A DNA stretch of 64,000 bases from Tubiluchus corallicola (Eukaryota > Animalia > Priapulida): NCBI GenBank assembly GCA_030141605.1, contig JAQGDQ010000151.1, positions 124,001-188,000 of the forward strand. The letters are read 5' to 3'. Made by a program: the position numbers and the translations under genes. Within the stretch, counting starts at the first letter, position 1; the number at the start of each line of letters is the position of its first letter. A model generated the notes under the pieces. That model made no database searches and had not been told where the DNA came from. It was given only the letters and a program-made list of their open reading frames with translations. This document shows positions 661 to 61,300 of this stretch, in pieces.

Positions 661-1455
661 CAATGATCTCTTGTGACCTTCCGGCTCCATAGCGTTTGAG
701 TTTTTAACCTATGCAAAGAAAATACATGTCGAATTAATATCCCATAATATGTGTTATCAGTATGTTATTCCTTATTTAATTTTTTGCAAACAAAAATAGT
801 TCGGGCTGACAATTGATGCTTTTATTACTTGTCAAATTGTGATTTAAATGTCTTGGTGTAAATTTAGAATGCCTTTTAACAGTTGCTGTTGTAGTTATCT
901 GTAATGTTGAAGGAATAACTGTGGAATACTTGAGTGGTCACGTTGTATGCTTGATTGCTAAGAAAACGAATGCAGGGCTTAGTTAATAATTAGACTGATG
1001 ATTGGCCACCTGTCAGGAAATTATAGTTTGGACAAAATGCAATTCCTAAGTAATTATACATGGCAAGTTCAACGGAGGCAATACTATGCCCTTCAGGGCC
1101 TTGATACCTATGAAAAAGCGATAAGTTCTGATTTCACTAAGCCTTCAATTGTCAAGCACAACAGCTCTTATTCAAAATTATTCTAAATCTTGTTTTAAAA
1201 ACATTTTAACTATTTTAAAACATTTTTGTGTAAAAAAACAAAAGCTGTCACATAAAGCATCTCCTGTCCCATAAGCAGAATCTTACCACAGTTTTTACAC
1301 AGTCAAAACGGTCCACTAGTTATTATTATAGATAGTAAAAAGGATTTGGAACTCACAGGAACCAAAAAGGAAAATATGGCACAAAACATGTTACAGTAAA
1401 TTGCTGTGTCTGGGTTTACATAACTGTTGGTACTTATAGTGTACATTTTTGACAG

Positions 1456-1712
1456 GTGCGTGAAAAATTGTAAAGAAAAGATAAATCCTAATGAGAACCT
1501 GATTTTGCGAGCAGAATGCTCTGATTGCGATGAAGAAGCTTTAGAGTCGATTTCATACGATTGGGAGATTATCCGTGGAAAACCTAATGTTGAGCGGCCG
1601 TATATTGTCTACAATACTAACTTCTATTTAACATACTTTCCTCAGACGGACCACATTACTTTACTAGCAGAGCTTTTCTTTGAAGGATTTGAATACTACA
1701 TAAAACTTAAAG
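1456..1712 (+). CDS. PKD1-like exon 1 in window (REJ)
   Basis: gacag|...aaag|gtatg; [24 protein letters not shown]...YYIKLK. Confidence 0.9.
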
Positions 1713-34700: not shown

Positions 34701-37700
34701 ATATAATTTCAATGACTGCAATTCTAATTGTTGTTCACTTGCATTTAAAGTGCAAGTATCAAATTAGAATATGACATCAGTTTGTGAAAGAATTTGATTA
34801 AAATGAAAAAAGCTGAGTTACACTTTATTAATTTATTAGTCACTTATCTATTGTGAAAGTGTGTTGTTGGTATGCACACATTGTAGTTTCTATTTTTGTA
34901 TTTTTAAACTTCAGTGCTTTTTCTGCTTTATGTTCTTGGATGCAGTTTTTCTTTTTGTCATTTAAAAATTCATTGTGCTCGAATATTTATCCGAGTGGTA
35001 TGCTGGGCTTTCAGTACACCAGCAGTTTAACTTGTACGGGATTATTCTTTTATTAAATATTTTGTGTTTTTCTCTATCTTTGATAATTCAGTTTTATTAG
35101 CTCTTACTGTTATTTGCTATCACACAAGCTATGCTTAGTGTGCTATCGACCATTTATTTTTTCTGGAACGGGACTAAATACTGATATGGCAAAATACGCA
35201 GTACACTCTTGGATACTGGTTTAACAGTATTTATTGATAATTTTAAATTATTTCTTGGCAAAATTCTCAACAACATTTTATATTGTATTATTTAGCAAAA
35301 GAACATAACAAAGAGGTTTGTGTACTTTACTGATTTGGTTTCTGAGACAATTTTTTTGAATGCCATTCCGGGGGATGAGCCAGTTATCCTTAACACGGTG
35401 CCTCTTACTCTTAGTCTTGAGCGTCAGAGAGCACGTCATTTAAGAGGTAACTGTGCTATGATGCTTTTTTCACATGGCAACACTGTTAAAAATGGATTAA
35501 CTATCATTATATGTGTAATTTTATTACTAAAACATTTTTAGGGATAAAGCTCTACTGTTTTCAACTGATATGTATGTTAGTTCAGTTTTTGTTGGCTAAT
35601 GTGATGTGCCAGTCTTAGTGCAAATGATAATCACTAATTAGCATTATGCTGACTCAAGTAAAGGAGAACCACAATAACTCAATGATTTTTATATGTAGTA
35701 TGATATGCATTTCCCTGTGGTTTGGTAATTACCTATTTAATTGATATGAGAAAAAGCTTAACACAAAAGCTTAGGACTTGTAAATGAAAAACAAACATAT
35801 TTGTATGAAATGCAAAGCTTTTTCATTGTATAAGGCTTACTAAAATGGCTGGATGACTACTGGGAGATCATTTCTGAACACTTTAATTTTCCGTACTGGC
35901 CCTGGCTGTTTTATTATAGGAAAAATGTATATAAACCTGCACCTGCAAGTGGCTTTACGGTAAATCCCTGTGACTACAACTATTCATCTGTAAACTCTGC
36001 ATTGGGAGGCGCCGTGGTATGGGAGTGGCTTTGGTCATGAAGCAGAGCTGGAGTACCAGAATAATGCATAGTTGTATATACTTAGTGTGTTATCATTTTT
36101 TGGCTTGCCGAAACACACACACCTACACACCTGCACTCAGGTGCGTCCTCACACACACATTAAGTGAAACACACGCCTGCACTCAGGTGCACACTCACTC
36201 ACACGTTAAGTGAAACACACACACACACCTGCACTCAGGTGCGCCCTCACACACACATTAAGTGAAACACACGCCTGCACTCAGGTGCACCTCACTCACA
36301 CGTTAAGTGAAACACACACACACACCTGCACTCAGGTGCGCCCTCACTCACACATTAAGTGAAACACACACACACACCTGCACTCAAGTGCGCCCTCACT
36401 TACACATTAAGTGAAACACACACACACCTGCACTCAGGTGCGCCCTCACTCACACATTAAGTGAAACACACACACACACCTGCACTCAGGTGCACCCTCA
36501 CTCACACATTAAGTGAAACACACACACACACCTGCACTTGGGTGCACCCTCACTCACACATTAAGTGAAACACACACACACACCTGCACTCAGGTGCGCC
36601 CTCACTCACACATTAAGTGAAACACACACACACACACACCTGCACTCAGGTGCGCCCTCCCTCACACATTAAGTGAAACACACACACACACACACACACA
36701 CACCTGCACTCAGGTGCACCCTCACTCACACATTAAGTGAAACACACACACACACCTGCACTCAGGTGCACCCTCACTCACACATTAAGTGAAACACACA
36801 CACCTGCACTCAGGTGCACCCTCACTCACATATTAATTGAAACACACACACACACCTGCACTCAGGTGTGCCCTCACTCACACATTAAGTGAAACACACA
36901 CACACACACCTGCACTCAGGTGCGCCCTCACTCACACGTTAAGTGAAACACACACACACCTGCACTCAGGTGCGCCCTCACTCACACATTAAGTGAAACA
37001 CACACACCTGCACTCAGGTGCGCCCTCACTCACACATTAAGTGAAACACACACACACCTGCACTCAGGTGCGCCCTCACTCACACATTAAGTGAAACACA
37101 CACACCTGCATCTACCTGCATCAGGGCCCTCACTCACATAATTAACACACACACACCTGCACTCAGGTGCGCCCTCACTCACACATTAAGTGAAACACAC
37201 ACACACCTGCACTCAGGTGCGCCCTCACTCACACATTAAGTGAAACACACACACACACCTGCACTCAGGTGCGCCCTCACTCACACATTAAGTGAAACAC
37301 ACACACACACACACCTGCACTCAGGTGCGCCCTCACACACACATTAAGTGAAACACACGCCTGCACTCAGGTGAACCTCACTCACACGTTAAGTGAAACA
37401 CACACACACACCTGCACTCAGGTGCGCCCTCACTCACACATTAAGTGACACACACACACACACACCTGCACTCAGGTGCGCCCTCACTCACACATTAAGT
37501 GAAACACACACACACCTGCACTCAGGTGCGCCCTCACTCACACATTAAGTGAAACACACACACACACCTGCACTCAGGTGCACCCTCACTCACACATTAA
37601 GTGAAACACACACACACACCTGCACTCGGGTGCGCCCTCACTCACACATTAAGTGAAACACACACACACCTGCACTCAGGTGCGCCCTCACTCACACATT

Positions 37701-40700
37701 AAGTGAAACACACACACACACCTGCACTCAGGTGCGCCCTCACTCACACATTAAGTGAAACACACACACACACCTGCACTCAGGTGCACCCTCACTCACA
37801 CATTAAGTGAAACACACACACACACCTGCACTCAGGTGCACCCTCACTCACACATTAATTGAAACACACACACACACCTGCACTCAGGTGTGCCCTCACT
37901 CACACATTAAGTGAAACACACACACACCTGCACTCAGGTGCGCCCTCACTCACACGTTAAGTGAAACACACACACACCTGCACTCAGGTGCGCCCTCACT
38001 CACACATTAAGTGAAACACACACCTGCACTCAGGTGCGCCCACTCACACATTAAGTGAAACACACACCTGCACCAGGTGCGCCCTCACTCACACAGTGAA
38101 ATGAAACACACACACACGCACCTGCGCCCTCACTCACACATTAAGTGAAACACACACACCTGCACTCAGGTGTGCCCTCACTCACACATTAAGTGAAACA
38201 CACACACACCTGCACTCAGGTGCGCCCTCACTCACACATTAAGTGAAACACACACACACACACACACCTGCACTCAGGTGCGCCCTCACTCACACATTAA
38301 GTGAAACACACACACACTTGCACTCAGGTGCGCCCTCACTCACATATTAAGTGAAACACACACACACCTGCACTCAGGTGCGCCCTCACTCACACATTAA
38401 GTGAAACACACACACCTGCACTCAGGTGTGCCCTCACTCACACATTAAGTGAAACACACACACACCTGCACTCAGGTGCGCCCTCACTCACACATTAAGT
38501 GAAACACACACACACTTGCACTCAGGTGCGCCCTCACTCACATATTAAGTGAAACACACACACACACCTGCACTCAGGTGCGCCCTCACTCACACATTAA
38601 GTGAAACACACTCACACACACCTGCACTCAGGTGCGCCCTCACTCACACATTAAGTGAAACACACACACCAGAAGTTAGATGACAGAGGTAATAATTACT
38701 GACAGTAACATTTAAATTCTTACTACTACTCCTGTGCCTTTCTTAGTTTGTGAAATGTTGAACTTCTTTGTTAATATTTCAGGATCTGAGGTGACCATTG
38801 AAGGTGACTCGCACTTTAAATTACCCTCTAGATTAACATTCCTTGATGGAGAAGATAGTGAAGTTCATGACATCAAGGTTGTTACCATATGATACATAAT
38901 TGTTAAAGTTGTGACATTCATTTAAAATTTAATTGTTCTACATGAAAAACTGTAAATGTTATTTATTATTCGATATTTCAAAGAATAAATTCAGAGTCGC
39001 CAACTGGAGTTGTTCGGCTTAGACATAGACATCAATAACTTGACTTGCAACTCAACATAAAGACTTTTTCTGACGTCTGCGTATACTTAAGTGCTTGAAC
39101 TTGTTTTTTTATTGTTAAAAACATTGAATAAGCAATATCTAGATATTAATTATGTAAATATAAACAAAAAGTTTACTTCTTGTGCTACAGCTGAAATTAG
39201 CATACAGTGCCATACTCGCTTTGTTCACAACTAAATATTTGACTTGGGTCCTCCTAGGTTGTGGTTTTGCACATTTCTCCACAAAATATTGTATTTTCAT
39301 TCAGAATGAGCAAAAACAAATAAGTTATTGCAGTTTAAGTATTGATTTTATTGTAAAAGTTGCTCTTCTGTCCTGGAATTATGAAACTTACAGTCCTTCT
39401 TGCAATGCCTTTTCATAGATATGTGTTTATTTAAATGTCTTACAACAACAAAGATATTAGACATATTATAACAGAGATTTTAGACTTTGGATCAGTGGCA
39501 TGAAAAACCTGTTAAATAATCGGAGTGAATAAGGAAATTTCAATCAGGCAATATGAAAATCTCATAATAACGGCTTATTTAAATGAAAATCATAGAACTA
39601 TAAACAATTATTAAATTTTGTCCTGTTGTAAATAAGGGCAAACTGCATGAACACAATTGTTATACGTTAAATTTAAAATTCTGTTTTTGTGATAGCTTCG
39701 TAACTGAATGAAAAACAGAAAAGCTTTACTACTAGAAAACATTCAAATTTGTTGACACATTTACAGGTTGTAAACCTACGCACTAACCCATACAACTGGG
39801 ATAACACTTCAAAGCTGGTAAATACATCCGTTGTCAGCATAGATGTTAGACAAAAGCACGGTGACACTGACCATGAGGGGCATTTGACAGATCCCATGCA
39901 TTATTTCTTAGAAATACCAGGTATAGCTGCATGCATGTGAACTATTGCTTTTTCTATAAGTCTGGTGTCAACAGGAAAAGAGCTGTAAAGTTTGATTGTT
40001 TAAAAATGATTTAGGAGTTTTATAATTTTAAAATTATAGCTAAGGAGTGCAGGAATTCAGTTGGCATCCGTAAAAGTTAAATACTTTTTACAGTTTATTC
40101 ATATAAATCTTTCAGTAAGCATATGTCTTCTGTCTTTATCCAGTGCAATGTGCTCTTCCATTCCTTTAGGAGACAATTTTTTTACTTTTGATACAAATGG
40201 TTACATTGTTCTTTAAAAACACTGTTTGCTCTTTCTCTTAAAGTGACAATAGGAAATTTCATTCCTTAGCAAGAGGATGTCATTTTTATCGGACAATTGC
40301 AGTGAAGCAATCTTAAAGATTGGGCATGTAACAATTGCAAATTTCAATAGTAAATTGGTATTTCAAGTTTTTACAGTACCAGTACTTTTACAGTCTGTAT
40401 AGTGCCAGTATTTACCGTTTTTCAATGTAAAATAACTGAAGTAGCAACCTGTTATAGGTTAAGCAGTATGTTATAGATTGGATGTTTCACTAGCATTCTT
40501 CATCTAACAGTTTTTTATGTAGTATTCATGTAAGGACTTCCACAATTAATATAAATTTACTTGTGAGTGTTTTAGGCTTTATTAACATTTAAATTAAATC
40601 AGCCTTACAGCTTTTGCTTCTGGTTTTTCACATTCTTCGTTACAAGCAAAAATGAAAAGCAGGTACATTTATAAACTCAATGTTTTATTGGTCTTAATTG

Positions 40701-43700
40701 ACTTCTTTTACGCTTTTATTTTGTAACGTTTGCAGCATTTTTAGCAGTGTAAGTAAGTGTAATAAGCTAAGCATGTTTAGAGTAATTAGGACTCATCAGC
40801 TAATTTACACTTTAGTAACTTTTTGTGAATCATTTGTTGGGCTTTTTCTCTACCCAACTATCTATTCATTATATTGAAGTTGCAAGTTCTAATATGCTTC
40901 CATACAAGTTTTCCCCAATGTCTGTTTAATCACGGTAAATGATACTAGTTTGGTGTTAATCAATTATATTTTCAATTTTACTTATAAATGTGATTGATGG
41001 ATTCATAGATGACAGCTCAACTCAGTCCACAAATCTATCAATTATAAAAACATTTGTGTGCATTCAGTTATGAATGCCAAACCTATTGAAAATTTTAATT
41101 TTATTTTAGGCGTTCCTGAAATTGAAACAAATGTTGTTATAAATCCGCACATAAACACAGATAAAGATATTACTGTGCACAGTTTTATTATAAATGGAAA
41201 CAGCTATGGAAGTGCGTCTTTTCTAAATTTACCTGAGGATATTTTACTTAAGGTAATTTTTGACATTTATTTGTAATTTAGTACTCGTAAGTGACATTTG
41301 TAGAATTATTGCTGGAATAAAAATGTGATCTGGTCAACGTTAGAACTAGTGCTTGATTACTACAGGACCAGTTCAATCATTAATCTTCTATCTTGGCTTG
41401 GTAAGCTGAATTTTTATCTTCGCTACACACATTTTGCTGTTCTTAGTATAGATCTCGATGTGGTTGGACAATTTTTCTCAAACCGAAGGAAGCCATTTTG
41501 ATGCATGTGAAGACCTGCTTTATATGGAAACATACAGAAAATCACACACACAACACACTTTATTTCATAAGTATTTGATATTGGAGGTCATATCACCATT
41601 TAGGCACATGATTAGGGAAGTGCAAGTGGTTTTTATATTGATGGATTTTTAAAGCTGTAAAATTTAAACCAACTTACATTTTTTGCTTAATTTCATTAAA
41701 ACAATAATAATGATGTAGTTGTATAGCAATATAAATATAATATAAAAGAAATATTTGACAACACATGACTAGCAGAGAGTTTAGTCTAATGGTAACCCTT
41801 TCTGTCTGAGAGGTCGTGAGTTTGATACAGTGGCGAGGTCGTAACAAAATGGTATGGATTTTTAAAAATGGTACCTGCAGTTACACTGATTGGCATGTGG
41901 TATTTCGAGTAATGATAGCCTCTGTTATATTGATTATTATTTACAGTCGGTCCAAGTGCACTTTGGTGCTTATGTTAATTGTTCATTCAAAAAAGCCAAC
42001 TATGGATATAAAGATTATTACTATTATCATTATTATTATAATAATTAAGTGAAAAAATATTTATTATTGCATTGATGAATTTTTATGTAGGCCTGTTTTC
42101 CTTCTGTTTTCAGTTATAAAACATTGTGTAATTTTATTGTCCTAAATAATTCCCAGTTTGCCTGCAACAAACAAAACATTTGAATGAACAAAATTCGAGA
42201 CAAACCTGGACAGTCAGGCGATCGTGCATGTAAAATTGTTAATTCTTTTAAGGTATGGTGCTTTGAAGGGACTCTAATCTTGTTTTTGACAGCTTGTTCT
42301 CTGGCATTGCATCAGAATATTTTGCTAAAACAGTAACTAAACATAATTCTACAGTTATAAAATATTTGCATTTATTTTTTAGGTTTTGTACAGAATTGCA
42401 CTGGAATTTTGTGGAGTTTTTTTTTCGAAATGCATTAACTAGTAAAATTTAATGTTTCCGATTGTTACACTGACATATTATTGATAACTATTTTGTAAAG
42501 TGCCTGCTTAATTTCTTTGACCACGTTTGATTACAGGTAGTTTTAAAGAGATCTAGCAAACCGGTGATTGATGATTTTAAGAAAAAATCTCTAGTGCATT
42601 ACATTCCGAGCTCACGCAATGAGTCATACCATGCTTCTTACTACCAATTTCGCACTATAAACGTTTACAATGATAAAGAGCATCCAGACGTATGGTATGT
42701 GGGGATTTTGTTTGACTCGTATTACGATCCTTCCTGCTACAAACCACTACAAATTTGTTCGACCAAAACAGATGAGTGTAGAGAACAGCGCAACGTTGAC
42801 CAGTGTCAGGTGAATGATGACGATTGCAGAACTAGAACGTACCTCTCTTGTGGTATTGATATTTGCATGGAGAAGCAACCATGTTATCCCGACTGGGTAG
42901 CTTACTGCCAAAAAGCAATGGAGGTCTGCATTAGGCGACAAATCAAATGTAATTTATCAAACTTGAACAAATGTGACATATATTTCAGGTACTGTGTGGA
43001 TGGTTGCAAAAAGTTCTCGAATGACACAACTTGTAGCTATCATTGCAGTCAAAGAGAAATTAACTGTACTAATGCTGCGAACAGTACATGCGAATCGACT
43101 GCTGTTTGTTTAAGAAAGAGAAATTTGTTATGTGTTGAAACGCTGTTTCTCCTTCCCAAAAGGCAGTATTGTAAGGACGTTTATTACAATTGCAGCGCAG
43201 AAGGCGAGGCGAGGTGTGATCGCGAACTTGCGAACTGCAACGGCGAGTGTCGTTTGTGTAAGCCACGTTGTGATTCAGCACTCCTGGGTGACTGTCTTGC
43301 TTTCTGCGATCAGGAACATTTTAACTGCACAAAAGCTAAACCGGAGAAATGCAAAAAATTTACGCAACAGTTTCATAATGACTCTTTGTGCGATCAGATA
43401 TTATGGCCAGAAGTTGAACTGACTAACAGTGTGCAAGAGCCAGAACCTGCAGCAAATGGTATGATTTGTTAGAAGGCTAGGTGCAATAATAACATGGCCT
43501 AAAATTGATACTCTATATAAAAGATATTATGTTAGCATGTCATGAACCGCTTATCTTAAGTATTTTTTGAGCCAAGGTTTCACAGGACTGCGACTTTTTT
43601 TGCGGTAAACGAAAATTTTCTAAATCCAACTGTCACCAAAATATTCACCCGAATGTATTTTGTGTCTAACCATTTGTGTGAAGTTTGTGTGAAATTCATA

Positions 43701-46700
43701 AATTTATGGTTATCTTTAACGACTTTAGTGACACTTGTATGACAAAGCGAATGTCACAAGACATTCGCATGTGTATCATTCCCAAGTTTTTGCGGATTCT
43801 GAAATTGTTAGAAACATTTGGCGACAAATTTTCACAGGTCTGATACATGTTACTACAACCATGACAGTTTGGCGAAGCTTTGGCAAGGTATTGAATTTTG
43901 AGTAGTAGTGGGTGCGGTCATTTACAAGATTACTTCGATTACTTAATCACAAGTCTCTGGTATTGATTACTTTGTTATGTGATTGAATATGAACAATTAC
44001 TTTTATGCCTAGGAATTTTTAATATATTTTGATTTTTCAAGAATGGCAAAATTTGTTTGAAATAATTTTTAACGTGGCAAAATCATGGATGTGAACACCA
44101 TACGTGTGTAAACACAAAGCTTACATATCTACACCTTCTTATACCGACTCCAGTTAAGTTTTATCAGTTTAGCATGACCAGAAACCTAGCAAATTTGCTG
44201 ACTCTGTAATTAATGCAGGTACAAATAAGCATTTTAATGTAAATAGCTTCAAAACCTTCTGACAAATAAATTTTAGGAAACTTTGTAAATAAAACATGAT
44301 AAAAGTCTCATACTTTATTATAGGGAAGGTCTATAATAACTAACTGCTGAAAATTCTAGAGACTTAGGCGTTATTCATAGCAACTCTGTGTGCCAAAAAT
44401 ACAAATCTGTACATAGAGAGCCAATCTCAGTAATCGATTACTGACTGAAATTAATCAATAATCGCAACTCTATTTGAAATCAGCGGTATCACCGACCACT
44501 AGTTTTTCGACTTCAATGACAAATTTCAATGAAAAGATTTTTAAAGCCGACGACCTTGGAACTTTTTTGCAATTGTTTGGCAAACTTTTGGCACATGTTT
44601 GGCGAATGTGGGCTTTTCGGATACTCACCGAAGTCGCAAACCCTGTGAAAGGATTCTTGTTTTTTATCTTAGATTTGAATATCTGTCTCTTAACAGTTCA
44701 GCTTGCTCATGGGCAGCAATAGCAGATTGAACTTTATGCCACTATGAAGTTGTAGCTTATGATTAAATGTCAAACGCGTTATTACTGTGAAGGGACTTTA
44801 TTATGCCTTTTGCAATGTAGAAGCTGGTTTATTTTCTTTTTTTTTACAGTTGGTAATGTTCTCTATCACATTGCATTGCTGACAGCTGATGTACAGTTTA
44901 GTGGAACAGCTGCAACTGTGTTTGTTTCTCTTCATGGCAGTTTGAACAGTACTCATGGAAGAGCCTTGGACAGCACAATACGCGACTTCAGTCGGGGACA
45001 GTAAGTTTTAACAGTGCTGAGAGAGCTTCGGGATCGTTATTCACAGAGTTACTTTACACCGTAGAAACTGATTCTTTTAGCAAATGAAAACAGCAAGTTA
45101 TACAGTGATGAAAACTTTTGAATGTTGTTATTTTAATCGGAGTCCCAGGAAATACTACATTTAACCTACACGTGACTAACCTTCACCGCGCAGTGAAGGC
45201 TGTACATTTTCACTGTATATTACATGATGTGTTTATTGTTTATTAATTTAAAAGAGCTGTAAAGCAGCTTACAGTTCTAGTAATTGTTAATATGTACACA
45301 GACTAAATGTGGTAATAATTGTTGGTAATAAATGTAGTGCAGGAATAATTTTTTGGTAGCCTGTTTTATCGTGTTGTACCAGTATACATCTTGGTGTATA
45401 CATTGTGTTTGATTGTACATTATAAGAGTAATTGATGTCAAACATATTAGTCTATCGCTCCGCCCCCGCTGTAATGTGAGCACGCTCAGCAGCACTCGGG
45501 ACAATGGCTCACGCAAGACAACAACTGTGTCTAAACTAAACTAAACTAAACAACATGACAGTCGCAACTAATGTCTAATCAGCTGACAAACTGATTGCAC
45601 TTTTTCGTAAACACAGATTTGCAGAACACAAAATTAACACTTTAAGTAGCCAAAAAATGACTCAGTTTGAACAGAATGTAGAGACGAAGTTTCAAAGCAC
45701 TACAAAATACAGAGACATGAGCATAATAAAGAAACTGAGCCAGTTAGCCTTGCTTTACAAGTAGTGAACAACAATAATATTAAGTCTCTCTTGCCTTTGA
45801 ATATACGAACATCATGCCTGCAATGTATTTTTTCTACATTAACTGATCATGTGCTCGTCTGCAAGATTTATCCAGTTTTTGTATTTTTCCATTTGTTAGG
45901 CTACGGAAATGGAATAAATTTCACTGTTCCATTCCTTAGCTTAGACGACCCTGAATGCCGGAGTCGCATATGTCCCAATAGCATCTTTTAACCATGATTA
46001 TAACCAGGAAAATAGTGTAGAATTAGCTAATATTACATTGATGTATTTTATAAGTTTTGACCACATTTGAATTCATTTTGACTGTGAAGATGAGGTTTCT
46101 TAAAACTGGCCAGAAAACAAAACAATTTGTTTTGTCCTTATTTAAAGTTAATCGAATAGTTGTTTTTATCTAACTTGCAAAACCATAAGCTAAACTAAAT
46201 TGCCTATTTTCCTGATTGCAAAATGGTTTAATCAGCAACTCATAGACGTAAGCATTGTGCATTTCTTCCTATATACGAAACTGAACTATATATTTCCACT
46301 AATTCATTTGCAATTTCAATTGACAGTAATAAATCTAGAACCAGGCCAATATTTCTCCCGCTAACTAATGAAAAGTTGAGCAAAATAACTTGCACGCTGA
46401 TAAAATTTCAATGAAAATGATTGACGTTATGTTAGACGTCAATTTTAAGCTCTTTTTCACTTGGTATTACAACCAGATTTGTGCATGATGGATGAATATT
46501 GGGCTGTATGGTTTTCTTAAAAAATTCTAAATCCTGCAAACATTCAATGGCTGGTTTATTCAAAAATGAATGGTCGTTGTGAAATAGGAATCTGAGTCAT
46601 TATCAAGTCTATGACTCGAGATTTAGGACTAGTCAATAAACACATTTAGCTGTGTATACGTTCTCTCTCAGCATGGTTAGAGTAAAACCTAATACAGTTG

Positions 46701-47056
46701 ATCTATCCGCCCACTAATCAGCTTGGTTAGTCAATTAGCCAGTCATTTTTAACTTCGGTTGCCAAGATGACACCACATACACTAGGCCATGCATCTTGCT
46801 CCAAGGCGAGTTCTTTAAAAAGACACTTTGTTACTTTCAGAGCCTCAGACAGAGATCTTTCAGCATTTTAACAAATGCAGATTTGTATGAACAGATTTGA
46901 AAGAATTAATTTGGACATACATGTATACATGTTCAACAGCTTTGTGAGAGAAATGTATTTACAAGACTTAGTGTAACACGTTTAGACACATATTGATACT
47001 GCCCAAATCAGTGTTGTATTTGTGTGTGTGTGTCTGGGTGGTGGGGGGTGCGTGCT

Positions 47057-47125
<69 letters not shown>

Positions 47126-50100
47126 TATAGGTAGAATAGATTTTTAAACTCAGTATCTGTTATATCTGAAGATCTCCGTGGTAAGTCTCTCAGTTTTTTC
47201 TAGTCTCCTCACTTATCTTCTTCAGTCAAATTGGCAATATAAATATTTTATGGTGCTATTTACTTTCAGAGTTGACTGGTTTCATTTTGAGGATACAGAT
47301 GTGGGGCAAATAAACAGTATCAGTGTTTGGCATGACAATACTGGACCAGACCCAAAGTGGTTGCTCGAAAAGGTAGTCCCTGGTGGAGAAAACTAGTTTC
47401 ACTAATCTCAAGCTCTGTGTTTTGAAAGGAGACATTACATGATTTACTCTCGCAATCTGACTATATAAATTTACTTTTTATGTAGATCTATATCAAATAA
47501 AAAGCAAAAATAAATATTCTCATACATGCATGTATGTAAGCCAAGTCCATACAAAATTGTTCAAAATATAACAAGTCAATCAATGTTTTGCTGATCACTA
47601 TAATAAATGCAAAACATATTGGAATTTAATACTAAAAATTGACTTTTGTAACTTCCTCCCAGCTTCTCTGCTTAAAAATGTAGTATTTCAGTTGAAAAAA
47701 CTTGTATTTTCCAACTCATGGTATGTAGCTCATGGAAGCTGCCATTTTGCTTGCAGTGCTTCTTGTTGTCAAGCCAACTATAGCAACCATTTTCAAATGT
47801 GACATCAGATGCACTTACAAAACCCATAGTACTACGTTTTTGTAATTTTACCATGTTGTTTTTCTAGAAATGGGACAAAAACAATGCAAACTTTAACAGT
47901 GACTTTTTTCAAGACTAACTTTCAGTGTTCATCTCAAACAAAGATCACCTCGGGTCAGAATTAACATAGAGTGATGAGCTTAATATTAAAATGATCCTTA
48001 TGAAGCACGAAGACTGGGGACATGTGAAAAATTAAAGTACAGTACGAACTATGAAGAACAGAAGTTGAACAACAAAAATATATTTATGTTCGTACAAGTT
48101 ATTTGGTATCAAATGGCCTGAAGTTATGAAGAAAGGCCTTTGGATTAAGCAGATCCAAATAAGAAAACTGCTTTGGACTAGATCTGCATTACGATTGCCC
48201 AAAATCATTTCTTCCTACAATGCTGCTTAGAGTTCTTATGTCAACAATAGCCAACCACTCACATAATTAAATGTTCATATTTAAAATCAACACAACTTTA
48301 TTAAATCTCACTTTACAAAGTTAAAAAGTTAAAACCATGCCAAACATTTCGACAAACTACTGCTGCTATAATGCAGTGGTACATTTACAATCATACAACC
48401 ATTTTATATAGTCAGAGCCTATTATGCAGTAATTAAGTAGTTAACAGAAGCCAAATAGGTAATGAATAAGCAGAGCAGTAAAGAAATTGATACAGTAACT
48501 TAAGCACGGATCGCTAGTAATTCATTAGTAACTAGCACTAAGCATTAAACAACATACTTAAACGCTAAGCTAAGGTAAGAATTTGTAAACATTTGGAGTT
48601 TTTGTCTGAAACTGGCAAAAAATTAAAAAAGGTCTCCTCAATCCAGCATTAATGACCATATTTGTGCATTTAGCCACAAAGCTGATTTTGATAATGTCAA
48701 TGTTGTGACCAGAGCTACAAATAACTGAGACTTATTAATAAATGAAAGTTTATCTAGGTACCATAATAGGCCTTATCTTAATGTACAAAGCAATTCAATT
48801 CCTTTTACTTTATTTTCAAACACTTAGCTATTTGTTACTGTATCAATTTCTTTTCACCAGGTCTGCTTATTCATTACTTATTCATTATTTGGCTTCTATT
48901 AAGCACTTGATTAGCGCATAATGGGCTGTGCCTATTTGGCCCGATTTTGCCGTTTATAACTATAAATGTTTAAGTGCCTGTAATAATTAATTGTACCACA
49001 AAAGGACTTAGCAAGTACATCTCCAAATTTAGTACATATCGTATGTAGTTGCAGCTGACGGAAGTATCCGACATCAACAAGTTGGATCGACTTGTGTTTT
49101 AGATGACAAGTAACTAAGAAAGCATAATTGCTGATGTGTACATGTTTTCGCTTTGCAAGCACACATGTAGCACTTTATGAAATGCTATTGTGAATGTGAA
49201 AATTTCCAATTAGAATGTCTGTTCATTCCATGCACGTGTATTTGAATGTGAATTTTGTGAATACTTCATTAGGTTATCTTGGTGAAAGAATATTATCAGT
49301 TTACTTGTCCTTGCATGACATGGCTAGAGGGGCCTCCTAGCATCAATCTTCAGACAATACCGTGCTTTCTTAGTGCAGATTATACTCCTCCAGGTATTTG
49401 CTTAGATTTATTTTGTCATACTAGCAGTTAGACATGTATGCATTTTCCTTCGACAATCATTTTATTTAAATTGCAAGTTTTTCTTGATGACTGTCCAAAG
49501 TAGTATGTTAGCAAAGCAATCATCAAATTAGTCTCTTTTCCAGAAAAATATACTCTGTTTCAAATTTAATAACATGTCAGTTGTAATATTACTTACATAT
49601 GCTGGGTTAACATTTTAAACTTTTACAAGACAGTTTTGTTTATTTATTATTAATATCAAATGCACCCTGCATGGGCGATACTTGATGTTCATGGACACTT
49701 TTTTCCTTTTCCCTTTGAGAAATAATAGCATAGCAGCATCCTTGTGTGGTAATTGCTTTTAGATTTCTAAAATTTAGCAGTGTTGTCTCATAGCTGCAAA
49801 AAGCCGTGAAGATAACTTGAAAACTTTGTGGTGTGAAAATAAATGAGTTCTTACTGTATGCTTCAGAGGTTTCTTCAAATGTTAATGCAGGAAAGAGCTT
49901 GTTTATAAGTAATTATCACAGTTAATTCGAGATGCAGAAACTTTGAAAGTGAAGAAAACTGTAAGTATTACAAAAATATTAAATTATAATTGTCTTCCAC
50001 GAAAGGTGCCAGAAAATATTATTAATGTGAAGTGCTTGTTTGTCTATGAGAATCGCACTTATCACGTAAAACTTCTGGATTTCTAATACTGTACATTACT

Positions 50101-53100
50101 ATGGTTTTAGTTAATAAAATCCCTTATAAACAGAAACCTGTTGTACTTACTTTTGTGTGAAAGTGTAAATATTTACTTTTTTCAGATCCAGAACTGGCGC
50201 GTGTAAACTTCAAAATAAGTTTTGCGACCTTTCAGTGTTTATTCTGGAATTTCACATTGGAACAATGGTCTTCTGAGAACTGTATGGTAATGCTGATTTT
50301 GTAATCATTAGCTTAACACTTTTGTTGATAAAAAGTGCAGTTACTGTTAAACACATATCAAAACTTTAAGTTCTAGTATTCACAATAAAATTTACTTCCC
50401 TCATTTGGTTATAATCACTACAAGGTATCTGTCGATGAATGGAACTTCTTGCATGGATTTGTGCTACAGAAAACAGTTTCGCCCAATTAAAAATGCCTAC
50501 TGATCAAAATTTTTGCTTGTTCATGTATCCTGTAGAGTTTTCTGAACAACACTATTGTGTTGCACCAAAACGTGATGTTAAATTGAAAGCATGTTTTCCG
50601 TAAGAAATAGTATAAAAGCTTGCAGATGCAACTTATAGAACCAGTGCAACTTTTTGTAGAAACGATAGTGTTAAAAGACAAGTAATGACGTCATTACTTT
50701 CAAATTTTCTTTTTGAACTATTTTATTACTTATCCATAGGCACCTATATAATATAACAAACAAATTCATAAACCTCTCAGCAGTTGAAAAAATGTTTGAA
50801 AAGTCATTTTTGGCCTTGTAAGCCTAATTTTGCCTAGTTCTGTTTGATTTACAATGCAATAATATCATAACACATCATGAAGCCATTTTTACAGGTTGGG
50901 CCTAACAGGACATGGAACAAAATCCATTGTCAGTGCCTCCACATGTCTACATTCGCTGGACGTTTTTTTGTCATGCCAAACAAGATCCATCCTTTCAAAG
51001 ACATTGTCTTGTTTGCCGAGTTTTTCAATAACCCCGTCATTGTCGTGTTTGTTTTGTCTATATGGATGCTGTACTTTATTGTGTTGATTTATGCAAGAAG
51101 AAAGGATCGGGAGGATGTAACACGGGTTAGTTATTTATATGCTATTAAACTAGGGGGACATTTTGCGATTGTCTTTTTGTTTAATATATAAGTACTTTCT
51201 TTATTAACATACTTACATCTATCCATGTGCACACTTGTTAGCTCTAGCTGTTACTTAACCTGGAAATCAAAGATCAGTTCTGATTCAGGATTCTTTATTA
51301 TTGACAATAATATGAGGAGGAAAAGAAAGTCATTTACTCGAAAAAAATTAATGGTGTTATATCATCTAATAGCGATACAGTAACTTGAATCAATTGGCCT
51401 TAAATAAGGAATAGATTCGAAAATAATGGTATAAACTTATACAGTACGATTTCAGTAAGCAGTATAGTACAGCTTAAGCAGTTAAACTTTGCAGTGAAAT
51501 GCATTTTTTTGTCGTCTGTAGTACACAAAATAAGTTTTTTAGTTAAATTTTGTTTATATTTCCAGTTGGGTGTGACAGTTTTGGAAGAGAATAATCCCTT
51601 TGACAAGTATACATATCTAATAACTACACATACTGGTATGAGGCAAGATGCCCAGACAACTGCTTTGGTTACAGTGGTTTTACATGGTACACTTAACATA
51701 TTGTTTAAATAGCGTTATGATGAAATCACTAACGTTATCAATCTGTTGCTATCAATTATATTTTTTGCTTCCTTGCAGGGAACAAAAAACTAGTGTCTGG
51801 AATTATTTGCTGTCTGGAAAGAAAACTTAAAAGCAGCTAATTAAATAAAAGACTGCAGTTGCGACCCCTATTTAATTTTTTTGACTAAGATATATCAGCC
51901 AGGTGGTCAAACTTCAACTGTCCAAAAAGTCTGATTTTTTATTACTCAAGAATTAGAGAAAATATTTTTGGTCACTTTAGCAGTTATAATTACTTTTATT
52001 TGAAAAGAAATATATGAGTATTAACATATTATTTTATCAGATTAAATTTAGTTTGTTGTATGAATTGAGGAAGATGTGGAAACAGTCAAACAAACAATTT
52101 GTTAAATGATATGAATAGCATAGATACTAGTGTTTATTAGTAGATTATTTGGGTAATATTATTTCAATCAGGTTACAAATGTGTTTAAAGGCTAGTGATA
52201 AGTACTGGCTGCAAAACTAGTTTTAAGGAAGTATATTTACACTACAAACTACATTATATACTTGTTTTATTTTGTCAGGAGAAGTAGGACAAAGTTTGCC
52301 AATAGCACTTTTCGATAGAAATCGACCTGTCATGACTAAAGCATCCCAGGACTCGTTTGTAATGACCACACCACATTGCCTGGGAAATTTGCATTCTCTT
52401 CAAGTTTGGCATGACAATAAAGGAGACAATCCTTCTTGGTGAGTACATGCTTGCAATAGCACTCGATTTTACACAAGAAATGTTTTATCTGTTATGTAGG
52501 GCAGGCATTTTGATATACAATTTATGTAGGATAACTGTTCCTGAATTGTTTCTATGCAAATTATCATAAACAAAAGTGCACTAGCTTTTATTATTTGAAC
52601 AAGAGTAACATGTCGTCCATTATATTCATGCTATAAATACTTTAGTATTGTCTATTTTACAAGTTATGAAGCAGCATTTATCAAGAAATGAAACGTCTTC
52701 CTTGTACCTCATCCTTGTGTAAAGTTTTAGTTTACTGATAATAAGCAGCTGGCCAATGACAACTGCTAAATGCATGTTTTTTTAGTTTTAAAAGTCAATG
52801 AAAGAGAATGAAGATTTCTTACAAAATGACAGTATTTACTTTTTAAGGTTTTTGAGACAAATCATCATAAAGGATATACAGACAGACCATACTTGGTTTT
52901 TTATCTACAATAACTGGCTAGCCGTTGATCGTGGACCTAAGACCATTTGTTGTATATTGAAGCCAGCTGGTGAAGATCAGTTGAAGGTAACTTTATAATC
53001 TTGCACAAGTATTTTTTATATACAATTTGCCATTTTATAAGTTGTTGTCTAACCATTCACAGCCAGGTCTTGTTTAATGATGATGGTTTGATGTGTGTGT

Positions 53101-55282
53101 GTGTATGCATGACCATGTGTGTGTCCTGTGTATGTGTATGAAGGTGCGTGTGCATGCATGACCATGTGTGAGTGTCCTGTGTATGTGTATGAAGGTGCGT
53201 GTGTGCATGACCATGTTTGAGTGTCCTGTGTATGTGTATGAAGGTGCGTGTTTGTGTGTGTGTGCAAGCATGTGTGAGTGTCTTGTGTGCGTGTGTGGAT
53301 GGGCAGGCGCATGCGAAATTGAACTCATTAACAGTAATAGGTTGTTGAACTGCCAAAAATGCCTTGGCCATATTTGGACACGTATCCACCTGGATGTTCT
53401 CAGTGAAATAAATAGTAGCTTTGTGAAAGCACCCAAAAGCAGTTATTTTAGCAAGCATCATTCATTGTTTCAATCAACCAAATCTGACTTTGCTTAACTT
53501 TACTGTTGCTTGAAACTAACATTTGGGAGGTTTTCAAGTAAAGAGAATACAATAATGGAGCTCGAGCTGTTACAATAATATAGTATATCTTGTCAAATAA
53601 TGTTTAAAATGCAAAAAACTAATAATCGTTCTCTCATTTAATAGTCAAAGTCAGTTAATTCTAATTTTAATGTAGAAACAGAAAATCTGCAAACTGAAAT
53701 AAGTTTGTAGTAGAAAACAGATAGTTGTTTCGCAGTTTTTATACTACAACAGTATCAAACAATCGGATTAACAAGCTTGAAGAACTACTGAAGTTAATTA
53801 GCTCAGCTAACCAATCCGTATTAAATACTTGCACTAGCATTCTTTTATCTATTTCATGATATAAACCTTAGTTATTTCAACTAATAAAAACGACTAATTT
53901 TAGTTGGTAGTCGGTAACTACAATGTCACCAGAGCATAAAAACTCACATTTGTGTCACTTTATTTTGACAATTATGCAACATATCACTGAGCTAAAAGCA
54001 AGCACATGCTTAAGGGATTCAATATGAGCACCAGTATAGAATATATCACTATGACTATGCATAATGAAAAATGAAAATAAATGGAACATTTTTTTCACAA
54101 GATCTGCTCCCAGTTTTATGAGAAATAATAATTCGCTATTAAAAATGATAATTTTTTGCAGCAATTCTCTCACCTCTTCACAAATAAATTCGTGGGAGAT
54201 TTGAGAGATGATCACCTGTGGGCCAGCATATTTTGGAGACCTCCACAAAGTGCTTTTACTCGAGTCCAGGTTTGTGGTGCTTTGTTTTGTGGGCTCTTTG
54301 TCTTTCGCCTTTCCTATTGCATTTGCCCATAGTATTAGTTACAGTGCTCGAACTTTGAGTGAACCTCAATGCTTCCTTTGACTAAATTTCTCTCTTAACT
54401 TGGCAAAATCCTCTAAAGTTTTTTATTTTTCTTTGTTGAGTTTAATTCATTAGGTTGAATTCTTTTTAGTTGTTTGTCTGATGGTTTGAATTGCAGATTT
54501 GGCATGTGGTTTAAGTGAAATGATTGTAATTAGTAATTATCCATGGTTTCCTTATTATAGTTACTATCGTCAGTCAATAATACAGAAATGTGTGTTTCGG
54601 CTTTATTTAGCATTTCTCAAAACTTTCTAATAGTAGTTAATCGATAAAATAATCAATAAACTACCAAGTCAAAATTTTCCAAAAAATAAATGATATAAAA
54701 AGTCAGCTTTGGAACTAAAACTTCTGAATAAACTTGGCTATGCATGTGTGGTCTTAACTTTCGACTTAAAAATAGGTAGATTTTGAATTAAAATTGAAAA
54801 TTCTGGAGTTTGATTTATTCTGAGTAAGAAAATGAAAATTGTTTTATTGTTTTTTGTTACGCCTTTTAGAAAGAAAAACCTAGAAGTATTTAAAATTTTT
54901 TACTATCTTTTATACTAATCAAAAATGTGCTCTCCTTGTCAAATAAATAAATTTGCTCTAAACTTAGCAAGAAGCTTAACTTTTACTGGACAACTGATTG
55001 GCTTATTAAAATCTAAAAAAGATCTAAATTTCATATAGGTTAAATGTGACAACCACAATATATTTGCAGTTTAGCTACATTTCCCAATATAGTGTTTCCC
55101 AGGAAAGACAACTTCCCAGAGCAGACTTACCAGAAAAATTTTTTCCCAGAAAAATTTTCCAAAAAAATATTTTTCCTAGAAAATTTGTTTCACAGAAAAA
55201 ACACCTTGTTGGGATTTTAGTTGCAAGATCTGCTATTTTAGTAGAACAAAGCCCTTGTTCTTTATGTTTAGCTCTATCCCTG

Positions 55283-55340
<58 letters not shown>

Positions 55341-58300
55341 CCTCTCTCTTTCTACTTCTAATTGCTCTACAGTGGTTTAATTAAGAGGACTATCAGAATA
55401 ATTGAAAATAACGCAAAGAATCTTGTATAGCAGACAGTCAGAATGTGCCATATTTTTAAAAGGCTTAACTCGTGTTGATACTGCCTCATTGTCCTCAATA
55501 TTTTCACAGTCTTAGGCAGATGCCTAAATCAGCAAAAAAAATGGCATATCTGTGAAAGGAACTACAAATTAGTTAGTCTTAATAAGTAATAATTGTAAAA
55601 AACAAAATAAAATGGAGGCCTTACAAACTATAAAGATTTGTGAATATTTTCGGACCAATACGTGCCCAATAAATTATGTTCATTTGCAAGACTTTTTAGA
55701 GGTTCGTTTGCGGCAAGACCAGATCCTAGTTCATTATCAAAATAATATTAAAAATATTAAACTGGCAAATATATCACAGATACATTTAGATGTATGTTAC
55801 ATCTTCGCTAAATGCTAAGAAACGAACGAAATAATTTTCAGTCAAAGTAAAAATAACTGCCCAACAGTAAGTTTCCTAACCAGTCTCCCAGCAAATCAGT
55901 TGCAAAGCTCGACATTGCTTCACTTCGGTAACCATTCACATGCCATGATTATTTACTATAGTGTATAAGCAAAAATCAACATGGTTTGCTATATAATTGT
56001 TCTGACATTACAAAAATATTTCGTTGCTTTAACGAGTTGACCAAATTTTTTTATTGTATAATTTATATTAATCAATAAACATAGTTAGAATGAACTACAT
56101 TTTGTTTTGTATCATCTAATCATGATTTAAAAAGGATTCATTACATTTTCTGGGAATTTTATTTTCAGGGAAATGGCTGTTCTTAGAAAAATCTTTTCTG
56201 TGGAGTAAATTTTTCTGGCAAAAAAGTTTTCTATATATATATATACTAATCTTTATTTGCCATTAAAACATTGATAATCACTGATAAAAACTTTACAGAG
56301 ATAATCAATCAGTGTTAGTTAATAAAAACTTACACTGCTGAAGGCAAATGCGTCAGTGCAATCTAAACTACTGTGCAGTAATGACGAATAAAATCAAACA
56401 TATTTACAACCATACACAAAACAAAAAAAAAACAAATTATGATTTAATTAATATGGCCGTGGGTATATGAATTCTGAATTAGTGTGTATGTTGTCGTACT
56501 GGTGTGATGGTATTTCATATCTGGTTAATATTAGTGATTTTAATTTTGTTTTAAATGCTGATAGGGACTTGATTTGTTTAACCTGTAATGGTAGAGAATT
56601 CCAAAGTAAAATTGCTTGTTTGATTACAGAGTTCGTTCCATAGTGGGTATTTGTCCTAATTTGTTTGTTTTTTCTGTGATGTTTTGTTTGTCAGGAAAAA
56701 AATTGAGCTGGCAAAAACTTTTCTGGGAAACGAGTTTACTTCATATTTTGCAGAACAAATTATTGCAAACATAACAATTTGCTCTAACTTTTAAAAGACA
56801 ATGGTAATGATTAATATTATGACGATATTGACAGAGATGATTCTAATGATAGTAATGACGAAGACGTTAGTGATGAGACCTATATTAAAGGTCTGACCTA
56901 TATAGAAATCTTTCAGATTTCTGCCCTAAAATTTGCAATCCTTCTTATAATTCTATGTCATATATTAGATGAATATCTGGTAGATTTTCTAACTTCTCAT
57001 AAAGCTTTTGTACTGAACTAAGCATTTTGATGTTTTATACTGTTCATTGCATATTTTAATGGTCTGTTTTATTGGCTTTGCAGAGATTGTCATGTGCCTT
57101 ATCATTATTGCTTCATGCTATGCTAGCCAGCATTATGTTTTATGGAATTACTGAGAAACCGGAAGACCAACTTGCCATAGGGGAGTTCAAAATTTCTATA
57201 CAACAATTTCTTATTGGTACATCTTAATTTATTCATAATTCTTATAATTAATTGACACTCTGTTATGTTTAATCTTCACTAGTTATATAATTATACAATA
57301 TATGTCATGAAGCTCACGATTTCTTGATTTGATTTTTATTATTTATTAGTTTGTAATTATTATCAATAGTCATATTATTACATTCTCTTGTTAAAATATT
57401 AAATTAAAATCCCACACAAGAAATTTCATCTGTGAAACAAGTTTATTTCTTTGTATACAGTCCAAACTTTCATCCTTGAACTAGTATGCATAACATTTAC
57501 CTTCATTGAAATTTAACCTGGGCATTTGGTTTTTACAGATCACTATCTGTAAAATTGTAAGCATGTGACTTGAGAGAGAGAGAGCTATGTATGGTATCAC
57601 TACTGATTCATAAAATAAAGTTTATGAGATATAAAGCGAAACTCACCTGTATTCTACTTGATTTATCAGTGTCTTAGCAATTACCTTTAGAAACGTCTTC
57701 ATAATACATATGGTACATGCATTCTTTTAACAATTGCCATATTTATGGCTAAAAACAAAGCTGTCATCTAGGTATATGTCTAATGTTAGTCTAGGATTGC
57801 ATATACTCTTAATGTTAGGAATATCTGTAGTGAATTGCTTGTTGAGTGGTCATTTCTTAATTTTTTTGTTTTTTTAATTGCAGGTATGCAGACTAACTTA
57901 ATCGTTTTTCCAATCAATTTGCTTGTAGTCCAGTTATTCCGCAGGACAACTACCCATGAAGACAAGACCCCAGAATTTATTAGAGAGCTGTAAGATTTAT
58001 TAATCTTTTGTTAGTGATGCTGTTGTTAGTGAAGCTAATTTGTTGACATGTGCTGGTTTTAAATATACCAGCACTACTCGGCTATAAATAAATTGTACAA
58101 GTTTCTCTACACGAATATACACATTCAATGTTCGTTTCAAGAGTTAATTACTTTGAATACTTTTTTGATGGCATACTGCATTGATTTAGTTAATAATTGA
58201 AATAGTGTGTGGAAAAGTGCATGACTATAATATAGCTATGTTCACATTTATGCACTTTTTCTGTACATGCTCCATAAATGTCAATATATACTGATATATT

Positions 58301-61300
58301 TAATCTTGCTTGACCTATTCCATTCTTCACTGGTTTCTACTAGTCTTAGGATCGGAAATTCTGCAGACAGCTTTTTTGTCTGCATTCTCCACCAATTTCT
58401 CTCGGCTGCTACTATTGCACATTCTGTTAGTGCTTTTACTTAGCTTTTTTTTAATTATATTACACATCTATCCATCTCGGCTGTCTTCCATGACCGCTTT
58501 TGCTTCATTTTGTCCTCAAAAGATAGACACGTTCGTGCCAGTTACACTGCAAAATGAAACAGAAACTTCTGGGATGGATTGGTCTGCTTTTGGGCTCGAC
58601 GCCAGGTCCTCAACTGCTGATAAGTTGACTGAGCTGTAGAGATACATTTACCTGATCCAAAAAATGACTGCTTTCAGTCAGTTTAATACATTACTTTTTT
58701 TTAAATTATCCTTTTTCTGGTTGGGAATATGCTAATTTTTATTTAATTTTAAACACATCCAAAAACTAAATTGTCAGATGATCTTTTCGAAGCAACCAGT
58801 TTAAAATTTTCAGGTTCTTGAGTTTTCTGTGTTAATAGTGTTTAAACTTTTAAAACTTGTCTTTCAGATACACTTTTCAGTGAGTTTTTTATGTTTTCAC
58901 AGTAAAGAGAAAACTGCAGATGCAATCGAAAGAGTAACGGAACAATTTCGGGACAAACAGACGGGTTCATTTGCTGCCGGATCTTTTTTTAGAATATCTT
59001 CATGGGTAAGTACAGCAGCCAAATAATATTAAAGCATTTTTAGAGTAAACTAACTTTTTTAAGTTGCTGATCAAACTAACCAAACTGGATGTTAACTACA
59101 CATTGTGGTTTCATCATACTTAATAACTTGGGAAATTTCGTCTGCTTAGCAATTTGTCTATAAATCTTGACCAATATCAGTGAAACATTAATTTCATATG
59201 TTTGCTGCCGCTTGCTTGGAAATGTTTCGGAAACATTTCTGTGCTAAATAAATTAAGCATGTATTTTCAGGCTTGTTAATGTTAATGATATAGGTCACCA
59301 TTCATGTTGTTCATGTAAATGATTTTCTAAATTATCACTCTCAACCACTGCAATCTTAATTAGATTACTTAATCGATCTGTTATGTTGAATTGTTTATGT
59401 TGAGAAATAACAAAGTTACTGGCAAACTAACCTCCACTTTGTGTGTTTGCATTAATGCATTTGAATGACTGATGTTGATGTCAAATGGAGCTGCATTGCA
59501 TTTTACAAATGTTACTATTGCTGCTTTTATTATTTGAACATTAATCATCTTGAAATGTCATGCATGAATAATAAAACTGTTCATCCGCACTCACGTTTTA
59601 AAGTTTAGCTCTTGGACTGGCTTTTATTTGCAAAATCATTTTTTTTCAGGTGGGAAAAAGCGAAATAAAATTTGAAACGGAAGAGGACTGGTTAGCCTGG
59701 TTGCGGAATTCTAACCGTTTAGAAGATAATACCGAAAAAGAAATATATGAGGAACTCAAAACCTCGAACAATGTGTTGTTAAAGATGGCAAAAAAGTTTA
59801 GCAAAGGTGCACAGGAGGAGTTCAGAAAAGCTTATGTAGCCCAAAGGCAAATTCTGAAACGTAGAGCAGAACTGAAAAAGAGAGGCGCGAGCATATACGA
59901 ACCTGATGACTGGTGGGGATATGAACTCATCTACATTAAAAAAGAACGAAGTTTTTGGGATGGCATCATTGCCTTGTTTAATATTCTCTGCTGTACTTGT
60001 GACTGTGAATGTGAGTTACCATGGTGGTGTCTCTATGTTGCCTGGACAGTTCTTGTTGTTTCCTCATTAATTTCTTCTTACCTAGTTATGCTTTACGGAC
60101 TAAGTTACGGATATAACAAAAGCGTTGACTGGTTGATTTCCATGGTGACATCATTCTTTCAAAGCCTGTTTTTCAGTGAACCAATAAAAGCTTTGCTTAC
60201 TGCTGCATTTCTCGCTTTTCTATTTAGAAAGCCGCCAGAGTTGGAGGGAGAACCTTATAATGTTCCTCTGCAAGAAGGTGAAGAATATCTTCAACAAACC
60301 TATTTTGATACCTATCAAAGGTGAGAAAAAATATTCCATTATAAAAATAAGTGTCACAATTACGTGCACCGTGTGAGCAATCCCTATTGCAACTGTGTTA
60401 TAGATATTTGTTCACACTCTTCCTCAAGCATAGTCTGTAAATAGGATGTTTTTCTCATATTGAATTTTGATGTCACAGTCTTATAGGCATTTGATTCTTT
60501 CGGCCACTTCTTATGTTTTGAGTGCAGATGAACTTCTACTTTTTTAAATACTGACAAAGAACTTACTTCCAGAGAATGCCACTGACTGTATAGGCCTTCT
60601 GGCTACTTTATTTCTATGCATACTTTCTTCTTCCAGCTATATGCTGTAACCTGATAAAAATATTCCCATGTATTGGACATCGGCTTCCATGAGTATTAAT
60701 TAGTGCATCACCAAATTTGTCCAAATCAGTTAATACTTAAAGTTTTTTTAATTTTAGTTGGTTTTCTTGTCCTGAAAAGTTGATGAAAAGTTATTAAAAA
60801 ATTTACTTGCATTAAAAAATTTACTTGCTTGCTTATGCTTACCTTGTAGATTTTGTAGTTTCCATAATTACAGAAAACATTCCCAGTTTTGTTGATCTGA
60901 GAAAATGTAAATGCTGACTTGAAAAATGAACACCGTGTAGCAACATTTCACTATACTCATACATTTTGTTTAACTTTGTGTGTATTTTGCCCACAGCTAT
61001 TTTTAGCTTTCTACATTTTTAGCTTGCTTCAGCGTCGGGAGAAATGTCAACCTCCAGATGAGAGGCAAATTGCTGCCACCAGGGAACGGCTCGTTTACCG
61101 ACGAAAAATGCGGCGGCTTCTTAATGATATTGCACTATACTTTTGTTATGCTTTGGTACTCTCCAGATTCATCTACCATGTTGTTGATACCAGGTAAAAT
61201 TTTCCACGCTAATCTACTATTATATTAATATTCTTGGTATGGGCTTAATATATTTATTTATATATATATAAGATTCGAGGCTACAGCTTCGACGAGGGCA

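Follow-up and report, generated by a model that had tools for sequence, protein, structure and literature searches.

In the sections available of the papers that describe them, members of the polycystin-1 (PKD1) family from sea urchin, planarian, fish, human and coral have one PLAT domain, which lies after the GPS (PMC1934368, PMC11448475, PMC5318412, PMC4890752); the same sections bear out the statement of an initial annotation of the locus studied here that the only PLAT of the family follows the first transmembrane segment (TM1). For PKD1-type GAIN domains, the part available of PMC11697300 presents a model in which an extra beta-sandwich lies between strand S9 and an extended strand S10 and also holds the prolonged tethered agonist. 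It states that no experimental PKD1 GAIN structure is available, and our PDB sequence search with GAIN alignment A4 returned none. We analyzed a 64,000-nucleotide stretch of the genome of the priapulid Tubiluchus corallicola (contig JAQGDQ010000151.1, positions 124,001 to 188,000; hereafter the window), which is AT-rich, animal-type DNA of about 36% GC. A single polycystin-1-like gene on the + strand runs through the whole window, with its 5′ start and 3′ end both outside. In the loop that precedes S10, in-frame exons of this gene are predicted to place a cysteine-rich module followed by an additional PLAT, and at the DNA level it is a real and apparently undescribed variant of the polycystin-1 family.

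Position and layout of the insert

The strands marked by WYVGI and VNFKISF are 381 residues apart, a distance made up of about 9 residues, a cysteine tract of 219 residues (from the first to the last of its 32 cysteines), a linker of about 23 residues, a PLAT of 117 residues and about 13 residues leading into S10; eight N-glycosylation sequons fall within this insert. The initial annotation had read the two strands as parted, in frame, by such a tract, a linker and a complete PLAT, and the joined exons, which contain no stop, agree with it, as does the tract length; its figure of about 370 residues for the insert is replaced by the computed 381. The exon chain is a model read from AG/GT ends, phase and frame (Table 1): the five exons between 42537 and 50286 and the exon at 50895–51125 have AG/GT ends throughout and encode 543 residues with zero stops. 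The transcript is probably spliced as modelled.

The flanking strands were placed by comparison with relatives. A GPS pattern that matched the window once, and none of 100 shuffles, fetched at least 119 metagenome polycystin-1-like loci (L001–L119), a pattern-chosen set rather than a full sample, with many near-copies; all counts of loci below refer to those listed in this set. A GAIN profile built from 26 of them, with the window left out, recovered the exons at 39767 and 50186. With the insert removed, the window chain aligned through WYVG at 51.5 bits, compared with a mean of 33.6 and a maximum of 38.3 when the piece at 42537 was shuffled (500 trials). Among 597 candidate exons from 117 acceptors across 41300–50140, acceptor 42537 was the best (71.9 bits), acceptors outside the large exon reached 35.5 bits at most, and no candidate provided a short exon in place of the large one.

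Because the conserved C-x-x-W of S10 directly follows VNFKISF, the insert would lie in the last loop of the extra sandwich and not in the cleavage pocket. The earlier placing of the insert is thus upheld as far as the polycystin GAIN region is concerned, and its site is revised to the loop before S10. Since the stalk exits through the same sandwich towards TM1, this loop likely faces the membrane, at the membrane-near end of the ectodomain. The GAIN domain probably folds around the insert, as relatives tolerate 12–73 residues at this position and all of the flanking strands are kept.

The loop was measured in loci that hold the S10 exon (57 of the 119), with the preceding strand placed by a strict same-frame motif in 30 and by eye in 15 more; the remaining 12, in which an intron or contig end intervened, were left unmeasured. 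It spans 12–73 residues in 45 of the 57 (30 distinct loops, median 53), and by eye that of L028 runs to about 17 residues across an intron and that of L004 to at least 85. These lengths are in line with the description, in the initial annotation, of the two motifs as neighbouring GAIN strands usually separated by a short variable loop. No PLAT or cysteine tract was found in that loop among the loci: all 37 tblastn matches of the inserted PLAT fell after the GPS, and the cysteine tract gave zero matches. The PLAT profile did find a PLAT-like fragment before the GPS of L023, but it sits outside the loop, with the S10 exon on one side and a duplicated start of the GPS on the other, and this contig was taken as disturbed. 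A set of loci this narrow shows that the layout is not the rule, rather than that it is unique. In the portions covered of the literature searched, which included few subscription papers, no PLAT or folded domain within a polycystin GAIN domain was found, in keeping with the earlier suggestion that the architecture might be undescribed.

The loop is itself an established place of variation, and the relatives carry a feature of their own there. A basic R-x-K/R-R site together with two cysteines occurs in 27 of the 45 measured loci (19 of the 30 distinct loops), including L002, L005, L007 and L037, and the window's insert has no R-x-K/R-R site. This combination is a conserved mini-module that a furin-like protease may cleave and a disulfide may hold together; no description of a basic mini-module in the GAIN loop was found in the portions seen from a literature search that included furin. 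Phase-1 acceptor candidates were present in the loop in 5 of 11 loci examined, and the other 6 had none. Long uninterrupted polycystin-1-like frames in L070 (4842–14904) and L037, of 4574 and 2517 residues, are useful intron-free references for the family.

The cysteine-rich module and the inserted PLAT

The cysteine tract had no match in Pfam (up to E 10), the PDB or the ESM Atlas, blanks that are no proof of novelty, and word-index homologue searches among proteins of up to 2000 residues (311, 8 and 3 candidates) yielded none at E 0.001. A phmmer search of 1.84 billion proteins returned two matches. P0001 was dropped as a homologue, being repetitive sequence that matched over 29 residues only. 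P0002 (216 residues, from a Logan contig of 2806 bases) aligned along 190 residues, where identity is 26% and 24 of 27 cysteines are in register, and its conservation reaches the end of the tract, beyond two internal GT sites considered below; P0002 also ends shortly after. The match, with so many cysteines in register, suggests that the tract is an old module, and it appears to represent a cysteine module of no known family that is older than the species. The ESM Atlas gave no usable match for P0002, and a metagenome scan with alignment A1 produced 71 pattern matches, none of which was confirmed. An ShKT identity for part of the tract was rejected: the six-cysteine spacing was matched just once, and loosely, in the window, P0002 had no such match, and Pfam gave nothing up to E 10.

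Spacings of 3, 6 or 7 account for 23 of the 31 intervals between cysteines, compared with at most 15 in 10,000 shuffles. Such spacings fit cysteines lined up on one helix face, and the tract likely consists of disulfide-stapled helices. Run X1 contributes DNA contigs that span most of the tract with no gap; among the codon changes listed between X1 and the window, 8 of 17 are silent (expectation, 19% silent sites) and zero cysteines are lost.

Against a profile made from the cytoplasmic PLATs of 23 other polycystin loci, the three joined exons of the inserted PLAT scored 59.6 bits (E 1e-20); the tblastn E was 2e-13. The inserted PLAT is 32% identical to the gene's own PLAT, and the introns of the two fall at different positions; in the tree the inserted domain sits on a very long end branch (4.0), with no supported neighbour, and is not sister to the gene's own PLAT; together, these observations rule out a recent duplicate of the latter. 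Exon 2 alone matched two proteins to the same weak degree (E 0.1), polycystin-1 and Rab6-interacting protein 1. A lipase-like end of the inserted PLAT received no support from PDB sequence searches, which were blank or at chance level, and the domain may resemble the PLAT repeats of LOXHD1. The cassette is bounded by phase-1 introns, and these bounds, taken with the phase-1 candidates in the loop of relatives, make it likely that the PLAT came by exon shuffling into an existing phase-1 intron of the loop. High-copy repeats occupy the introns of the cassette at 45234–46676 and 47639–49081 (summed X1 depth 150–2500, compared with about 10 elsewhere). From run X2 one contig mapped, a repeat, which has no bearing on expression.

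A possible external arm and competing explanations

The explanation we favour, at even odds, is that the cysteine module and the second PLAT, carried on a surface loop of the GAIN domain, give this polycystin-1-like receptor an outside binding arm. Under such an arrangement, the PLAT would have entered by exon shuffling and the cysteine module separately, the latter before the origin of the species; the extra sandwich would hold the start of S10 together with the prolonged stalk to TM1, with the loop near the membrane; and the arm would stay on the N-terminal fragment if the receptor self-cleaves. PLAT domains bind lipids and proteins, according to the parts available of PMC9672506 and PMC10889196, and by analogy the outside PLAT could attach near the membrane to a lipid surface or to a protein partner. 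In polycystin-1 the stalk drives signalling (PMC9672506, in the part available), and we tentatively propose that a load on the arm might be passed to the stalk-holding sandwich and in this way adjust channel gating or signalling. The arm may, as the initial annotation envisaged, control the tethered agonist. The full proposal, that an animal lineage has a GAIN domain bearing a disulfide-stapled helical module and an outside PLAT that binds a membrane or partner and pulls on the tethered-agonist sandwich, we consider doubtful.

Several observations weigh against an external arm of this kind. The exon chain is known from DNA, and the transcript is a prediction. The piece before WYVGI is not significant by itself (E 0.2 on a 70-residue cut), which is why the placing of this strand draws on context and alignment A4, and a profile of the strand preceding the insert did not recover that strand in the full open frame. 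Two AlphaFold models of the large exon were poor, with a mean predicted local distance difference test score (pLDDT) of 36 and 35, and the helical reading of the tract therefore draws on the cysteine spacing; the membrane-near position of the loop comes from topology. The excess of silent changes has little force (p 0.014 over every listed change, 0.15 within a single contig), and X1 may be the source sample. P0002, the one homologue of the tract, may belong to something other than a polycystin. At least 2 kb of sequence upstream of the GPS is present in only 35 of the 119 loci.

The cleavage site belongs with these points. The window has the motif H-M-S, which occurs in none of the 119 loci (101 HLT, 17 HLS and 1 HFS), and before the second GPS cysteine it has asparagine where all 24 other rows of alignment A5 have glycine. 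Along with the large insert directly preceding S10, these differences would suit a receptor in which the insert is real but blocks or replaces self-cleavage, the uncleaved protein carrying it as a spacer or shield unlinked to the tethered agonist. We consider this unlikely: the window gene retains the four GPS cysteines, the histidine, a serine as nucleophile, the phenylalanine and the stalk's P-N, and the loci behind the comparison were picked by pattern. Methionine before the cut also occurs in some cleaved adhesion receptors.

The reading frame itself would permit a main protein with the cysteine module alone. Two of the eight combinations of keeping or skipping the PLAT exons maintain the GPS in frame, namely all three exons (381 residues) and none (256 residues), and the very long PLAT branch and the absence of a match to the third exon alone could mean that the cassette is optional or in decay and usually skipped, in which case the insert would have 256 residues and the protein a single PLAT. 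This outcome is quite unlikely in our view, given that the three exons, spread over 4.5 kb with introns full of repeats, are all open and in phase and still show the core motifs of a PLAT for all their deep divergence, while their acceptors are as pyrimidine-rich (67–89%) as the flanking ones (61–78%) and their donor scores are alike. The large exon is not droppable, as its loss breaks the frame and the GAIN strands lie on it. It is very improbable, finally, that the chain is an artefact: that the assembly is wrong, that the locus is a pseudogene or takes in parts of a different gene, or that a donor inside the large exon removes most of the cysteine tract. Two phase-1 GT sites within that exon, 43170 and 43287, do score like the modelled donor, and the tract has a single homologue; yet the conservation with P0002 passes both sites, no phase-1 site in the large exon scores 3 or more upstream of 42948, the X1 contigs cover the tract and every joined exon is free of stops. 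The 597 candidates likewise held no substitute for the large exon, and 67 open frames of the intervening DNA gave no Pfam match, in a search of low sensitivity.

The wider locus and its relation to known polycystins

The exons of the gene recognized in the window are collected in Table 1. Its introns hold other elements. A decayed long terminal repeat (LTR) retrotransposon lies on the − strand at 19195–26063, with terminal repeats 91–93% alike and gag-pol-like frames with many breaks; by its motifs we take it to be BEL/Pao-like. It carries an intronless glycosyltransferase-8 piece at about 24290–24974 (Pfam E 1.5e-04), which presumably resembles glycogenin and may be a host transcript that the element picked up. 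In a GAIN intron at 36117–38669 lies a 52-base satellite whose 50 copies are 89% alike, and remains of non-LTR retroelements occur at 15791–16042 (reverse-transcriptase match, E 2e-07) and, by eye, at 9296–10532 and 4670–5026.

Table 1. Features of the polycystin-1-like gene in the window (phases are given for whole exons).
Feature	Position	Strand	Phase (start–end)	Basis
REJ exon, open frame	1424–1747	+		Pfam PF02010, E 8e-08
Second REJ exon, open frame	15630–15863	+		Pfam PF02010, E 1.7e-05, 24.1 bits; slightly below cut-off of 25
Span of GAIN exons	about 35300–50990	+		
GAIN exon, core beta strands	39767–39920	+		Profile from other loci, E 4e-09; splice ends
GAIN exon, first strands of polycystin-specific sandwich	41110–41252	+		Aligns in insert-free chain
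Start of large exon (42537–43458), GAIN strands up to WYVGI (42693–42707)	42537–42722	+	0–1	Chain score compared with shuffles; best acceptor of 117; alignment A4
Cysteine tract, 219 residues, 32 cysteines, shares exon with WYVGI	42735–43391	+		Homologue P0002; no Pfam match
Linker, acidic, proline-containing, ends at phase-1 donor	43392–43458	+		Sequence
Inserted PLAT, exon 1 of 3	44850–45000	+	1–2	Pfam PF01477 positions 1–48, 16.9 bits; alone below cut-off
Inserted PLAT, exon 2 of 3	47270–47372	+	2–0	PF01477 positions 54–82, 16.0 bits, alone below cut-off; loci profile E 1e-07
Inserted PLAT, exon 3 of 3, and short linker	49273–49393	+	0–1	Completes frame and domain; no match alone, weakest exon
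Extended strand S10 (VNFKISF at 50209) and first half of GPS	50186–50286	+	1–0	Loci profile; Pfam; alignment A5
Second half of GPS (H-M-S 50940–50948, predicted cut M/S), stalk, TM1 (about 51040–51095)	50895–51125	+		GPS pattern; Pfam
Ordinary cytoplasmic PLAT, three exons (51566–51686, 52279–52438, 52848–52986)	51566–52986	+		Loci profile, 123 bits, E 2e-40
Further membrane-region exons	54135–61194	+		tblastn with L016, L037, L070; channel half outside window

The insert bears on two open questions, the activation of polycystin-1 and the role of the extra GAIN sandwich. An insert of 381 residues that arose in nature points to a loop able to accommodate entire domains, in which many relatives have a mini-module that a protease likely cleaves. 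The loop offers a place where engineering can be tested and where one can ask if a load on the sandwich frees the stalk. The locus also adds an old, unclassified cysteine-rich module and what would be a polycystin with a PLAT on both sides of the membrane. Were the full proposal of a pulling arm true, the loop would offer a handle, provided by nature, on the gating of polycystins, and in human polycystin-1 it would be a permissive position for inserting tags or force probes; were the arm passive or skipped, the insert would be a lineage-specific oddity only.

The 119 loci are alike in having the same strands, the same loop and, mostly, the same phase-0 exon start before the GPS cysteines, and they differ in that the loop reaches at most 73 residues in the 45 measured and holds no folded domain. 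The stalk and TM1 of the window gene are, we presume, most like the PKD1L2/L3 type. The sea urchin protein SpREJ7 has a 428-residue insert that splits its REJ domain (PMC1934368, in the part available) and is alike in bearing a large insert in a conserved ectodomain module; unlike that of the window gene, its insert lies in REJ and not before the GPS, and that part of the paper reports no PLAT in it. The PLATs of lipoxygenases, lipases and Rab6-interacting protein 1 belong to the same family and bind membranes or partners, and in the sources consulted, as far as available, none is inside a GAIN domain. With PKD1, PKD1L1-3, PKDREJ, SpREJ3-6 and the coral REJ-domain protein, the window gene shares REJ, GAIN/GPS, TM1, cytoplasmic PLAT and membrane region, in that order; it differs from them in its 381-residue insert before S10, its outside PLAT, its cysteine module and its H-M-S motif.

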